From Escherichia coli (GTDB lineage Bacteria > Pseudomonadota > Gammaproteobacteria > Enterobacterales > Enterobacteriaceae), in NCBI RefSeq assembly GCF_030013205.1, contig NZ_CP122648.1: a stretch of 64,000 nucleotides of DNA. One strand, 5' to 3'. Positions 27,545-29,459 of this stretch are shown here, in pieces; the first letter of the stretch is position 1, and every line of letters starts with the position of its first letter. The translations under genes were made by a program, and so were the position numbers. The notes beneath the pieces are model-generated. The model worked only from the letters and a program-made list of their open reading frames with translations, searched no databases and was not told the origin of the DNA.

Positions 27545-27642
27545 AACTCCTGAGCAGGCGGCACTATGCCGCTTTCATAGGAGTTCTGAATGCTGGTGCT
27601 TTCTGTATGGCATAACCATGCCTCTAACGGTTAAGTGCCTGC
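27545..27642. repeat. Direct repeat copy 1 (~98 bp): imperfect hairpin plus the 3' end of the antitoxin gene
   Basis: About 87% identical to 29362..29459 by eye alignment; the first 67 bp differ at only 4 positions. Confidence 0.7.
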
Positions 27643-27914
27643 AGCACATGTTGCGGATCATTGGCAATCGCTCGCAGCAAAGCCTTTGCAGGCCCAGTCG
27701 GTGAACGTCGCCCCTGCTCCCAGTTACGCAACGTGTCTACGCTTACGGAAATAAGTTCGGCAAATTTAGATTGTGACAACCCTGAAGCGCGGCGTATTTC
27801 TTTGATTTTCATAGCATCAACTTCAAAAGTCCGTGAAGGGTGTCGCGTTCCTTCAATAATTTCATTCATCTGGGCCATGCTGTGAGTCAACCGCTCAAAA
27901 AGTGCCTTATCCAT
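27624..27914 (-). CDS. HTH (XRE-type) antitoxin, HigA-2-like (96 aa)
   Basis: Helix-turn-helix ...IKEIRRASGLSQSKFAELISVSVDTLRNWEQGRRSP...; start codon directly abuts the upstream toxin stop (TGG-TAA-ATG). Confidence 0.75.
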   Translation of the reverse strand: MDKALFERLTHSMAQMNEIIEGTRHPSRTFEVDAMKIKEIRRASGLSQSKFAELISVSVDTLRNWEQGRRSPTGPAKALLRAIANDPQHVLQALNR

Positions 27915-28226
27915 TTACCACCTCGTATTTAACAACCGGAGCATTGCTTTTTCCTGGGGAGACAGATCATCTTTAATACCCTTACGATAAATAAGCAGTA
28001 ATCTGATCTCATAATGTTTAACCTGATGAAAGTAAATAACCCTGACACCAGCACGTTTCCCCTTTCCTCCTGACACCCATCGAACCTTTCTTAACCCACC
28101 AGTTTCAGGTATTACCTCACCATAGTCAGGATTCAAGGCCAGGAAAAACTGAAAACGACTGAATTCATCGTCGGTCAGCAGTTTTTGAACATCTTCAGTA
28201 AAAATTTCCGTTTCGATGAAGAGCAT
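27915..28226 (-). CDS. RelE/ParE-superfamily toxin, HigB-2-like (103 aa)
   Basis: MLFIETEIFTEDVQKLLTDDEFSRFQFFLALNPDYGEVIPETGGLRKVRWVSGGKGKRAGVRVIYF... closely resembles HigB-2-type toxins as I recall them (GGLRK...GKGKR.G.R.IY core); toxin-first gene order as in higBA. Confidence 0.75.
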   Translation of the reverse strand: MLFIETEIFTEDVQKLLTDDEFSRFQFFLALNPDYGEVIPETGGLRKVRWVSGGKGKRAGVRVIYFHQVKHYEIRLLLIYRKGIKDDLSPQEKAMLRLLNTRW

Positions 28227-28263
28227 AATTATACGCCATTGGCTTAGAGTAACAATCCTTTTT

Positions 28264-28280
28264 GTACGTCATTGACGTAC
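28264..28280. promoter_or_regulatory. Perfect 17-bp palindrome GTACGTCA-T-TGACGTAC upstream of the toxin gene; candidate antitoxin operator
   Basis: Seen directly in the sequence, 38 bp upstream of the toxin ATG; a TATAAT hexamer lies immediately 5' of that ATG. Confidence 0.5.
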
Positions 28281-28442
28281 CCTTGAAACCACTAGCTTAC
28301 TGATAGTGCTCCAGCAAAACCACGTCTCTGCCGGGTTTGTCTTTACATTTGCGAGGCGCTTTCCAGATTTTTCACGCCCGTGAATTTCCCTGTATCCATC
28401 CAGCAAAAACGGGTGTATAAAACTGTACATTCATACAGCAAA

Positions 28443-29363
28443 ATGAGTTCTACTATGGCACTGGAAAAAGGAATTGCAGAGTTAGTCGAAGAGTTTATCG
28501 CTGCGGGTCGCCCCTCATCGCGTCAACAAAGTATTGCGCAGCGCAGGGAGGGCTATATCGCCAGCGCTGTCCTTGCGGGTGAGACAGAAACGCGGGTAGA
28601 TATTCAGACTATCGAACTTGAAGGGATGATCTTACGAATAGTGTCACCGCTGAATGCCCCGACATTACTCCCGACGATAATTTATTACTACGGTGGCTGT
28701 TTTGTTAGCGGCGGGTTCGCAACTCACGACAACCAGCTGCGCCAGTTAGCCTATTACGGGCAATGTCGGGTTATTGCCGTCCAGTATCGGCTGGCACCGG
28801 AACAGACTTTCCCCGCCGCCCATGATGATGCGCAACGAGGTGCAGAATTAGTCTGGCAACACGCCGAACGACTCGGCGTTGATAAACAACGGATAACTCT
28901 TGCCGGTGACAGTGCGGGCGGACATCTGGCGCTGGTAACTGCTTTGCGATTAAAGCGTGCTGGCGAGTGGCAACCGGCACAACTCATCTTAATTTATCCC
29001 ATGCTTGATGCGACTGCGCATTTCGAAAGCTACATACGCAATGGTCACGATTACATCATCACACGCGACACTTTACTGAGCGGCTTTGAGATGTATCTGC
29101 CAGGCATTGAACGCAGGCATCCTGAAGCCAGCCCTCTTTGGCGCGATGATTTCAATGGCTTGCCACCTGTACATATCATTACCGCTGAATACGACCCACT
29201 TTGCGATGAAGGTGAAGCGTTGTATCACCGCATGACAGGGCAAGGAGTGCAATGCACCTGCCAACGCTACCTTGGCGTTATCCACGGATTTTTTCAGTTA
29301 GGTGGTATCAGTGAGGCTGCGCGATCGGCGCTGCGGGATGTGGCCTGGAGAGCGGGAAGGTAA
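28443..29363 (+). CDS. Alpha/beta-hydrolase esterase/lipase of the HSL (Aes-like) family (about 306 aa; start uncertain)
   Basis: GDSAGG nucleophile elbow, downstream DPLCDEG and HGFF (Asp/His of the triad); oxyanion-hole region reads YYYGGCFVSGG rather than the usual HGGG; candidate starts at 28380 (GTG), 28443 and 28455 (ATG) all lack a clear Shine-Dalgarno. Confidence 0.7.
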   Translation: MSSTMALEKGIAELVEEFIAAGRPSSRQQSIAQRREGYIASAVLAGETETRVDIQTIELEGMILRIVSPLNAPTLLPTIIYYYGGCFVSGGFATHDNQLRQLAYYGQCRVIAVQYRLAPEQTFPAAHDDAQRGAELVWQHAERLGVDKQRITLAGDSAGGHLALVTALRLKRAGEWQPAQLILIYPMLDATAHFESYIRNGHDYIITRDTLLSGFEMYLPGIERRHPEASPLWRDDFNGLPPVHIITAEYDPLCDEGEALYHRMTGQGVQCTCQRYLGVIHGFFQLGGISEAARSALRDVAWRAGR

Positions 29364-29459
29364 CTCCTGTGAAAGCGGCACTATGCCGCTTTCACAGGAG
29401 TTCTGAATGCTGGTGCTTTCTGTATGGCTTCGCCATGCCCCTCGCAGCTAAGTGCCTGC
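29362..29459. repeat. Direct repeat copy 2 (~98 bp), containing a perfect 37-bp palindrome (29364..29400) and a remnant antitoxin 3' end
   Basis: ctcctgtgaaagcggca-cta-tgccgctttcacaggag is perfectly self-complementary; it sits 1 nt after the esterase stop, between convergent genes. Confidence 0.7.

Follow-up and report, generated by a model that had tools for sequence, protein, structure and literature searches.

Direct repeats around a toxin–antitoxin and esterase block in Escherichia coli as probable alleles of a single spacer

Homology-facilitated illegitimate recombination is documented for Acinetobacter, S. pneumoniae and P. stutzeri, and it occurs at low frequency in E. coli conjugation (PMC3240628). 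Arrays of orphan modules generated by sequential displacement are known from the T6SS effector–immunity loci of V. cholerae (PMC5361080; orphan Rhs/CDI 3' ends are cited there). On a smaller scale, quasipalindrome correction has a published mechanism, the Ripley model, which has been followed in E. coli at a natural hotspot in thyA and with lacZ QP reporters (PMC7202029). Here we analyze a pair of direct repeats at a variable locus of E. coli and compare it with each of these systems.

The repeat pair and its neighbors

The 64-kb stretch of E. coli DNA considered here (the window) includes the variable locus fdhE-yiiF-yiiE…fabY, where it is identical to ETEC1748. The first-pass annotation of this stretch had called attention to direct repeats of ~98 bp, about 87% identical, around a toxin–antitoxin pair and an esterase gene. 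A repeat search and MAFFT alignment confirm the repeats and put their identity at 88%: copy 1 (R1, 27545-27642) and copy 2 (R2, 29362-29459) each span 98 nt and align without gaps, with 86/98 positions identical. Given one 1-nt indel, the similarity reaches 27649/29465 (105 columns, 87.6%). Differences are unevenly distributed. The central 26 nt are identical, while 37/41 positions match in the part that forms a hairpin and 28/38 in the part to the right; the identical runs are one of 33 nt and another, inside the hairpin, of 20 nt. Similarity is not limited to the hairpin. The repeat (R) is present only twice in the window, and a 20-nt core of it would be expected 0.02 times by chance.

R consists of the last ~25 nt of the antitoxin gene, nadS, plus an 84-nt spacer that ends at the Shine-Dalgarno sequence of a 73-aa ORF (orf73). 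R1 overlaps the final antitoxin codons, as annotated at first pass, covering the nadS stop codon and the last five codons (27624-27642). The remnant of an antitoxin 3' end recognized earlier in R2 is also real: on the minus strand at 29441-29465, ~20/26 positions (a hand count on the alignment) match nadS 27624-27649. These end codons are degenerate and frameshifted by one deleted base, the stop is lost, and no antitoxin ORF is present.

nadS (27624-27914, minus strand) encodes a 96-aa HTH (HigA-like) antitoxin, assigned by PGAP and by NCBIfam NF041265 (NadS; 60.4 bits, cutoff 60). Upstream of it in the same operon lies higB (27915-28226, minus strand), which encodes a RelE/HigB-like protein of 103 aa with a weak match to Pfam RelE (PF06296, E = 0.006) and is labelled a RelE/ParE family toxin by PGAP in some genomes. 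A promoter scan places a promoter-like site at 28255-28228. The toxin stop and antitoxin start abut (27915/27914), and the genes are co-oriented with the toxin first, the higBA order. Judged from sequence, higB-nadS fits a type II toxin–antitoxin module with a HigB/RelE-like putative toxin and an HTH antitoxin. On the other strand, at 28455-29363, annotation and domain search identify an alpha/beta-hydrolase (hormone-sensitive-lipase-type esterase) of 302 aa.

Directly downstream of R1 is orf73 (27318-27539, minus strand), an orphan. It is intact in the window and frameshifted in many genomes, which makes its status as a gene doubtful; in a homologue search, all that appeared was this Escherichia gene in frameshifted form, in many cases from assemblies prone to error. 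Neither orf73 nor the adjacent 92-aa orf92 (26988-27266, minus strand) matches Pfam or NCBIfam. Beyond R2 lies a 617-aa gene (29532-31385, minus strand) in a segment of low G+C (0.33–0.47 in 400-nt windows, mostly <0.42, versus ~0.53–0.57 in fabY). This ORF had no match in Pfam, NCBIfam or a PDB sequence search, and the PGAP label 'transposase' on part of it is an annotation without Pfam or NCBIfam support. It contains a CKSAKDR motif, which we take to resemble that of SopB/IpgD-type phosphatases.

Layouts and allele classes at the locus

Among 5,426 complete E. coli genomes, R is confined to the fdhE-yiiF-yiiE…fabY locus, in one or two copies per genome. We mapped the breakpoints of the other layouts by BLAST and distinguish three forms, the counts being approximate for the first two. 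In type II (~2,300 genomes), the order is R-nadS-higB-esterase-fabY, with R on one side of the block only. Type III (~710 genomes) has a divergent left flank, one R, the low-GC 617-aa gene and then fabY. In type I, the form of the window (329 genomes), both blocks are found in tandem; a query across the esterase|R2 junction was fully covered in 329/329, at 97.6–100% identity among the matches sampled. Hence the content between the repeats, which the first-pass annotation had proposed to compare across genomes, does vary.

The yiiE-side and fabY-side flanks are 94–98% identical between layouts, such that a homologous anchor is available on either side. The B-type left flank of type III, by comparison, is only 78–79% identical to the window and has an internal deletion of ~390 bp that removes orf73 and part of orf92. 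In type II, TAACTCC is followed by a 58-bp segment. Given that this segment and the divergent left flank are both absent from the window, neither type can be derived from the window by simple deletion.

Comparison of R copies resolves two classes. Class A comprises R1, ATCC 25922 and 181.1 (96–99% identical among themselves), and class B comprises R2, ECSC054-R2, O157, PCN033, P19_598 and NY1601 (90–99%); identity between classes is 84–89%. R1 is 96–99% identical to the single, nadS-adjacent R of ATCC 25922 and strain 181.1. R2, extended to 29465, is 90–94% identical to the R of type III and 85–87% to A-type R, and its ortholog is the single R beside the 617-aa gene of O157:H7, PCN033 and genomes like them. 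It follows from this grouping, R1 with type II and R2 with type III, that the pair is neither an in-place duplication, as had been suggested for copy 2, nor a set of att sites. We also observe that the central 26 nt are identical between classes that share only ~75% identity in the right part, a pattern that could reflect selection on some function and not history alone.

Other genera indicate which layout came first. In Salmonella and Citrobacter the order is fdhE-nadS-higB-esterase-fabY, without R and without the 617-aa gene. This makes the type II layout ancestral, and the toxin–antitoxin and esterase block a resident of the locus rather than an insertion bounded by its own repeats. Esterase homologues are 75–83% identical across the Enterobacteriaceae, and the gene adjoins fabY in the three loci compared.

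Breakpoint comparison shows that the A-type esterase gene, at its 3' end, meets the B-type R in a microhomology of 6 nt, AACTCC (29362-29367). These bases are common to the end of the esterase gene (TAACTCC|GGACC… in type II) and the start of R (…AAAACTCC|TG… in type III). To the right, from 29368 to 31761, a B-derived segment with the rest of R2, the 617-aa gene and its upstream region stands in place of the 58 bp of type II. Only one type of junction is seen, at the base of the hairpin.

The most probable reading, in our estimation, is that the repeats are two diverged alleles of one spacer that became stacked when two forms of the locus were joined, and that they mark an ordinary recombination scar. 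The population would have held two old classes of R. Class A would have resided in the ancestral R-nadS-higB-esterase-fabY context. The class B context would be derived, a low-GC island with the 617-aa gene having replaced nadS-higB-esterase and left a stub of ~25 nt of nadS on the spacer. An A-type segment running through the esterase stop may then have been joined to a B-type segment beginning at the hairpin base, with AACTCC as the site of the one illegitimate junction. For the second crossover, ordinary homologous recombination within a conserved flank can be presumed, as happens in homology-facilitated illegitimate recombination. Such a joining would stack the alternative cargo blocks and automatically place the toxin–antitoxin and esterase block between an R of class A and an R of class B.

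This reconstruction resembles the published cases of homology-facilitated illegitimate recombination (PMC3240628) in having a novel joint at a 6-nt microhomology and two sides collinear with extant alleles; because of that collinearity, the second crossover can be ordinary homologous recombination. It differs in that both partners are alleles of the same locus, not foreign DNA, and in that the event is read from sequence rather than watched experimentally. The T6SS arrays of V. cholerae (PMC5361080) offer a second parallel: alternative cargo blocks are stacked at one hotspot, and short stubs of a displaced gene's end are repeated at block boundaries. Here, however, there are two blocks only, the stub amounts to ~25 nt of an antitoxin gene plus spacer, and neither a repeated constant 5' region nor a toxin–immunity logic underlies the arrangement.

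One caveat is that this history is built on ~15 sampled loci together with bands of identity and coverage in BLAST. The allele classes are themselves mosaic, as some type II genomes (strain 181.1) have a B-like left flank. R2 of type I genomes has at least two right-hand haplotypes, which mirror two haplotypes of type III; to explain this, homologous exchange must have followed, or the layout must have arisen more than once. An intact B-type nadS was not encountered.

A pairing-restoring change in the hairpin of R2

R2 opens with a perfect inverted repeat of 41 nt (29362-29402; two 19-nt arms and a 3-nt loop) that takes in the final two bases of the esterase stop (TAA, 29361-29363). The 37-bp palindrome annotated at first pass (29364-29400) is its core, and it stands with a refinement: it is strictly a perfect inverted repeat with a spacer, two 17-nt arms around a non-palindromic 3-nt center (CTA), beginning at the base directly after the esterase stop. 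In R1 the equivalent 41-nt hairpin (27545-27585) is imperfect, with two mismatches and two G·T pairs on the plus strand. The AGGAG that precedes orf73 (complement of 27547-27551) falls inside this hairpin, 7 nt upstream of the orf73 ATG, so that the hairpin supplies the Shine-Dalgarno sequence of that ORF; both points agree with the earlier description. Folded as RNA, the R2 hairpin gives –33.9 kcal/mol (z = –10 to –11) and the R1 hairpin –23.1 kcal/mol (plus strand) or –18.8 kcal/mol (minus strand). The z-scores of the hairpins range from –4.7 to –11. Most plausibly the role of the hairpin would be limited to that of a terminator-like or RNA 3'-end structure, serving the higB-nadS transcript in R1 and the esterase transcript in R2; in R1 it may also occlude the ribosome-binding site of orf73.

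Within the hairpin R1 and R2 differ at four positions, and 4/4 of these differences turn a mismatch or wobble into a Watson-Crick pair. Of the 329 genomes that share the esterase|R2 junction, 120 have the perfect palindrome and the other ~209 an imperfect one. The type I genomes ECSC054, RIVM_C039205 and 1190, for example, have an imperfect, O157-like arm (TGAGCA-GCGG) at the same junction. Between strain 1190 and the window, only the arm cluster and one SNP differ from the start of R2 to 29491. The cluster lies at 29370-29375, where the window has TGAAAG and imperfect relatives have AGCA-G: two substitutions and one inserted base within six bases, and each of the three re-establishes a pair with the 3' arm. 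The 5' arm thus produced forms 19/19 pairs as the reverse complement of the 3' arm.

A clustered change in which all three differences restore pairing is the signature of template-switch correction at a quasipalindrome. Based on this signature, the likely mechanism is an intramolecular template switch: in one sub-lineage (120/329, including the window), the imperfect 5' arm of R2 would later have been replaced, in a single step, by a sequence exactly complementary to the 3' arm. R is confined to one locus in the 5,426 genomes, and no second genomic copy is present as a donor for gene conversion. We also searched with synthetic queries. No type III context with the perfect arm turned up (best match 97.3%), and the imperfect arm on the R2 haplotype of the window gave one near match, strain 1190.

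As in the experimental systems (PMC7202029), several clustered bases, an indel among them, have been altered so that an imperfect inverted repeat became perfect; the sequence so created complements the opposite arm exactly, and the organism is E. coli. Here, by contrast, the change is read from natural population variation in a non-coding spacer rather than selected in a reporter, and the stem is long (19 bp). The locus thus appears to hold a natural, datable case of quasipalindrome correction, and the 120 perfect and ~209 imperfect sequences at the same junction could serve the study of template-switch mutagenesis outside reporter genes.

Alternative accounts of the two copies

Of the competing explanations, the one that survives best, though we rate it unlikely, is that R is a functional RNA or cis-element kept twice by selection: a terminator or attenuator that also occludes orf73, an as yet unannotated RNA, small or antisense, or a mini-peptide (MLVLSVW…) with a leader or toxic role. 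The strength of the hairpins is in its favor, as is the placement of two Shine-Dalgarno sequences within the stem, that of orf73 on the minus strand and that of a mini-ORF on the plus strand. So too is the 26-nt core, identical between classes that differ by ~25% just to its right. On the minus strand the R1 hairpin comes directly after the nadS stop and is followed by UUUUACUAUG, with the stem running into UUUUACUAU (UUUU).

In these respects R1 is similar to Rho-independent terminators and mRNA 3' stabilising hairpins, which likewise form a stable stem-loop right after a stop, and its UUUU after the stem adds to the likeness with Rho-independent terminators; R2 has such a stem-loop right after the esterase stop on the plus strand. 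Unlike a Rho-independent terminator, R2 has no U-tract on either strand, and its 19-bp stem is much longer than usual.

The mini-ORFs (MLVLSVW...) behind an AGGAG that had been annotated on the plus strand of both copies do exist: 14 codons plus stop at 27590-27634 in R1 (MLVLSVWHNHASNG) and its twin at 29407-29451 in R2 (MLVLSVWLRHAPRS). In both, AGGAG lies 6 nt upstream of the ATG, inside the 3' arm of the hairpin. Five codons differ between R1 and R2, 5/5 nonsynonymously, and O157 has L2P. With every differing codon changing the amino acid, nothing points to coding constraint; the mini-ORFs probably do not code and, for annotation, are unlikely to be genes.

Other findings also argue against a selected RNA. 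R had no Rfam match even at E ≤ 1, and a scan of 24000-33000 at that threshold gave only a spurious lncRNA match outside R. RNAalifold on nine R variants showed compensatory change in 0/36 predicted pairs, and the consensus scan for promoters and terminators reported nothing inside R. R2 has no downstream gene to regulate, and orf73, an orphan that is often frameshifted, is deleted in all B-type genomes that still keep R. A functional hairpin is compatible with the joining of two spacer alleles, yet by itself it leaves the two copies unexplained. As for a known small RNA, we considered Esr41 of O157 as a candidate for R; it maps to O island 43, elsewhere in the genome.

A second possibility, which we regard as improbable, is that the long hairpin at the left edge of R is actively fragile or recombinogenic as a result of hairpin or cruciform processing. 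Illegitimate joints would then be directed to the hairpin base and would drive the swapping and stacking of blocks at the fdhE–fabY hotspot. The junction at the hairpin base, the variable 5' arm and its rewriting might all be outcomes of this one structure-driven process. Beside the hairpin, the invariant 26-nt core could additionally be an unannotated E. coli-specific RNA element.

A still poorer prospect, disfavored by our data, is that the layout of the window is ancestral, with R2 a local duplicate of R1 and the single-R genomes derived by homologous deletion between them. Single-R genomes do have an R1-like left arm (TGAGCAG…) and an R2-like right part, as a crossover in the identical core would give, and, at 33 nt, the longest identical run comes close to the minimum that E. 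coli RecA needs. But every sampled single-R genome has the divergent, internally deleted B-type left flank, and a synthetic query for the predicted R1×R2 deletion product found it in 0/5,426 genomes. The 12% divergence of R1 and R2 far exceeds that of the adjacent block, which is 0.15% between type I genomes, and type II carries 58 bp that the window lacks. The arm itself, TGAGCA-GCGG, is already present in the imperfect R2 of type I, which makes it a B-type character and not a hybrid.

Least probable of all, and largely refuted, is the idea that the toxin–antitoxin and esterase genes form a mobile cassette which entered a single R through site-specific or Campbell-type recombination, with R1 and R2 as attL/attR-like ends and the hairpin as the site. 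It is suggested by repeats that bracket the block exactly, by identical runs of 33 nt overall and 20 nt in the hairpin, and by the existence of genomes with one R and no block; structured hairpins, moreover, serve some recombination systems. Against this, nadS-higB-esterase adjoins fabY in Salmonella and Citrobacter without R, and the commonest E. coli layout has R on one side of the block only. The excision product with an A-type flank is found in 0/5,426 genomes, and the single-R genomes that do exist carry a different, divergent left flank. These results run counter to the view of the block as an insertion unit. In addition, the imperfect type I R2 is already B-type from the first variable position (13), which would confine a reciprocal crossover to about the first 12 nt of R. 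None of the ORFs tested (antitoxin, toxin, esterase, the two orphans and the 617-aa ORF) showed an integrase or transposase domain, and R occurs at no other locus, plasmid or phage. The locus thus provides a worked example of direct repeats that mimic the footprint of a mobile cassette around a toxin–antitoxin block and yet are probably two spacer alleles plus one illegitimate joint, a contrast that emerges from comparison across the population and across genera. Current understanding of toxin–antitoxin systems and of genome plasticity is unchanged by it.

The database searches behind these statements gave few matches. Against plasmids, R had four, all Mb-sized E. coli records (1.0–4.9 Mb, chromosome-sized) filed as plasmids; against phages it had none. 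With one genome per species (GTDB), the exact 27-base core matched a single 445-bp, low-coverage contig in a Micromonospora assembly, which has a B-type left flank next to R and is most likely E. coli contamination. An integron attC site was considered on account of GTTRRRY in R1 and rejected: R2 has GCTAAGT there, and neither an integrase nor an array is present. Dispersed repeats of the REP/BIME or ERIC type were also set aside, R having only 1–2 copies per genome at one locus; the true REP copies in the window (family D4) are unrelated to R. Finally, the B-type core matched three metagenome contigs, all with E. coli type I or III flanks and hence no new context.

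Setting and layouts of the repeat

The region is 100% identical to that of E. coli ETEC1748 and occupies the chromosomal interval fdoGHI-fdhE-yiiF-yiiE … fabY(yiiD)-dtd-yihY. Within it, two copies of a 98-bp repeat (R) bracket a toxin–antitoxin pair and an esterase gene. We read this pair of copies as a scar left by recombination at a variable hotspot of the chromosome, itself of a known kind, and the right-hand copy appears to hold a natural example of quasipalindrome correction. Both phenomena are already well known; no description of this locus was found in the searchable literature.

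The two copies, R1 (27545–27642) and R2 (29362–29459), are identical at 86 of 98 positions (88%) in an ungapped alignment, so the pair noted in the first-pass annotation is real, and the similarity reaches 27649/29465 once one 1-nt indel is allowed. No third copy occurs within the 64-kb window, the chance expectation for a 20-nt core being 0.02 occurrences. Differences are unevenly distributed: the central 26 nt are identical, compared to 37/41 positions in the hairpin part and 28/38 in the right part, and the longest identical run is 33 nt. R1 reaches into the 3′ end of nadS (27624–27914, minus strand), covering its stop and five final codons, and its stem contains an AGGAG placed 7 nt ahead of the ATG start of orf73, a 73-aa ORF (27539–27318, minus strand). 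In R2 the antitoxin codons are degenerate and frameshifted and the stop is lost, which bears out the earlier view of this copy as the relic of an antitoxin gene. The 14-codon mini-ORF with an upstream AGGAG, also noted earlier, is present in both copies.

nadS encodes a NadS-family HTH antitoxin (NF041265, scoring 60.4 bits where the cutoff is 60). Immediately upstream lies higB, for a RelE/HigB-like toxin with a weak Pfam RelE match, which PGAP annotates in some genomes as a RelE/ParE toxin. The gene for a hormone-sensitive-lipase-type esterase (28455–29363) is divergent from these two. The divergent region contains a promoter-like site for higB-nadS (28255–28228), and just upstream of its –35 element is a perfect 8+1+8 palindrome, GTACGTCA T TGACGTAC (28264–28280), a candidate operator for the antitoxin.

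R is present in 3,369 of 5,426 complete E. coli genomes, in every case at the locus described here, and is missing from ∼2,050; none was found on genuine plasmids or phages. BLAST breakpoint mapping of sampled genomes distinguishes three layouts. Type II (∼2,300 genomes, e.g. ATCC 25922 and Nissle 1917) runs yiiE-orf92-(orf73)-R-nadS-higB-esterase, TAACTCC, 58 bp, fabY, where orf92 is a 92-aa ORF; it has one R only and no 617-aa gene. Type III (∼710 genomes, e.g. O157:H7 and PCN033) comprises a divergent left flank (78–79% identity, with an internal deletion of ∼390 bp in orf92/orf73), one R, the 617-aa gene and fabY. Type I (329 genomes, among them that of the window, ETEC1748 and 7/2) combines the two blocks in tandem, so that the toxin–antitoxin and esterase genes have an R on either side. 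K-12 has a larger deletion and no R.

The type II 58 bp between esterase and fabY holds a hairpin of its own, GAAAAGGTTTTCAGATTGAAAACCTTTTC (5825–5883 of L008, the ATCC 25922 locus; also in comparison locus L005), which is likely a bidirectional terminator lost from the window layout. In strain ECNB21-M121 (comparison locus L004, 4049–4050), an IS5-family ISKpn26-like element lies inside R, just past ...CTGAATGCT, and both the rest of R and a portion of the 617-aa gene are absent.

Allele classes and the junction

An alignment of nine R sequences resolves two groups. Group A (R1 of the window, ATCC 25922 and 181.1) is 96–99% identical internally, and group B (R2 of the window, R2 of ECSC054, O157, PCN033, P19_598 and NY1601) 90–99%, with 84–89% identity between groups. 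Because R2 falls in group B, it is the counterpart of the single R beside the 617-aa gene in type III. The right end of R2 is the ∼25-nt stub of an antitoxin gene displaced by the 617-aa island, and an intact B-type nadS would be expected to carry …GCAGGCGCTTAGCCGCGAG… at its 3′ end.

The first-pass annotation also raised the idea of a duplication, or of an insertion flanked by repeats of its own. This does not hold, since R1 and R2 are different allele classes and the bracketed block is resident in Salmonella and Citrobacter. In those genera the gene order is fdhE-nadS-higB-esterase-fabY, and esterase homologues are 75–83% identical across Enterobacteriaceae. Order and homologues outside E. 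coli thus indicate that the toxin–antitoxin and esterase block beside fabY is old and resident, which rules out an inserted cassette. R-like sequence, yiiE/yiiF, orf92/orf73 and the 617-aa gene are all absent from the Salmonella and Citrobacter loci examined. Nor is the window layout the parent of types II and III, as it contains neither the type II 58 bp nor the divergent type III left flank.

The newcomer is the low-GC 617-aa segment. This ORF (29532–31385, minus strand) lies right of R2 and is uninterrupted, with a G+C content of 0.33–0.47, mostly <0.42. Sequence comparison with Pfam, NCBIfam and the PDB gave no match. The ORF contains a CX5R P-loop motif, CKSAKDR, reminiscent of SopB/IpgD-type inositol phosphatases. 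PGAP splits the ORF in the identical ETEC1748 sequence into a ‘transposase’ and a pseudogene, and in O157 the region consists of two separate ORFs.

The window matches type II through the TAACTCC that follows the esterase gene, and type III from the AACTCC at the start of R. A query spanning this junction was covered by all 329 type I genomes, at 97.6–100% identity in the sampled matches. The switch at AACTCC and its presence in 329/329 genomes point to a single illegitimate joint, formed where the two share 6 nt of microhomology, in which a type II-like esterase end would have been fused to a type III-like R. The flanks are 94–98% identical between layouts and could have provided a second crossover. 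The pattern matches homology-facilitated illegitimate recombination, with mechanism and direction inferred. Recombination of this type occurs at low frequency in E. coli (PMC3240628), and stacked orphan modules elsewhere have likewise been attributed to it as a proposal (PMC5361080).

The palindrome in R2

R2 had been described as carrying a perfect 37-bp palindrome (29364–29400). The 17-nt arms are indeed perfect, but a 3-nt center lies between them. The inverted repeat extends to 19+3+19 = 41 nt (29362–29402) and overlaps the end of the esterase stop codon by two bases. Predicted folding energy is –33.9 kcal/mol for the R2 hairpin versus –23.1 (plus strand) and –18.8 (minus strand) for R1, and all four differences between the R1 and R2 hairpins turn a mismatch or wobble into a Watson–Crick pair.

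Identity to the window over junction and hairpin reaches ≥99% in just 120 of the 329 type I genomes; the other ∼209 are at ∼97.6% (sampled matches). ECSC054, RIVM_C039205 and 1190 have, in place of the window's TGTGAAAGCGG, an imperfect O157-like arm, TGAGCA-GCGG. Between the start of R2 and 29491, strain 1190, the closest imperfect relative, differs from the window by this arm cluster and one SNP only, and divergence among type I genomes left of the junction is ∼0.15%. The cluster comprises two substitutions and one inserted base within six bases, and brings the 5′ arm into exact reverse complementarity with the 3′ arm. In the population, the 5′ arm varies in its middle (at least five variants) and the 3′ arm is nearly constant. 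A synthetic query for the perfect arm in a type III context found no such sequence (best match 97.3%), and no further copy of R that could act as conversion donor exists in the 5,426 complete genomes, where R occurs at this locus only.

We infer that the perfect palindrome arose later, as a single-step change. Such a clustered, pairing-restoring change is the signature of quasipalindrome-associated template switching, an established mutational mechanism in E. coli (PMC7202029), with which the R2 arm shares a clustered change completing an inverted repeat.

A further arm variant, TGGGCAGGCGACCAC, occurs in L020 (NZ_POTY01000570.1, 445 bp), a low-coverage contig of a Micromonospora craterilacus assembly with a B-type left flank and R; this contig is almost certainly a contaminant from E. 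coli.

Activity of the repeat and minor observations

The product expected of R1×R2 deletion (A-type flank, hybrid R, 617-aa flank) was found in 0 of 5,426 genomes at ≥80% coverage of a synthetic query. R has no Rfam match, its 36 predicted pairs show no compensatory covariation, and a consensus scan found no promoter or terminator in it. All five mini-ORF codons that differ between R1 and R2 change the amino acid. On the minus strand, nadS is directly followed by the R1 hairpin, and this in turn by UUUUACUAUG; R2 has no U-tract on either strand. Most plausibly, the R1 hairpin serves as terminator or 3′ end of the higB-nadS transcript and incidentally occludes the orf73 ribosome-binding site. 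The 26-nt core is fully identical between allele classes, which could reflect selection as well as history.

orf73 has no homologues except frameshifted Escherichia versions. It is disrupted at an A7/A8 run in several otherwise near-identical genomes and deleted in B-type genomes. The tract is T7 in the window (27482–27488; A7 on the coding strand) and T8, causing a frameshift, in 7/2, PEC011, 1190 and ATCC 25922, a sign of either gene decay or a tract prone to slippage. In the public E. coli assemblies behind comparison loci L010, L012 and L014–L016, fdhE, yihY, dtd and fabY are pervasively split, which is typical of uncorrected long-read indel errors; through such errors, small ORFs acquire spurious ‘divergent homologues’ in protein databases.

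Other repeats were seen in the window. A 79-nt direct repeat (81% identity; 26191–26269 and 26630–26708) lies upstream of yiiF and yiiE, which are tandem CopG/RHH paralogues. A VapC/PIN toxin gene follows a yiiF-like gene in strain P19_598 and comparison locus L026, and yiiF here therefore looks like an orphan VapB-type antitoxin. A 300-nt direct repeat (70% identity, copies 1,410 nt apart; 43638–43937 and 45048–45347) probably reflects paralogous genes. Three REP-type elements, GCCGGATGCGGCG…CCTTATCCGGCCTAC (10516–10554, 46539–46577 and 57119–57157), are unrelated to R.
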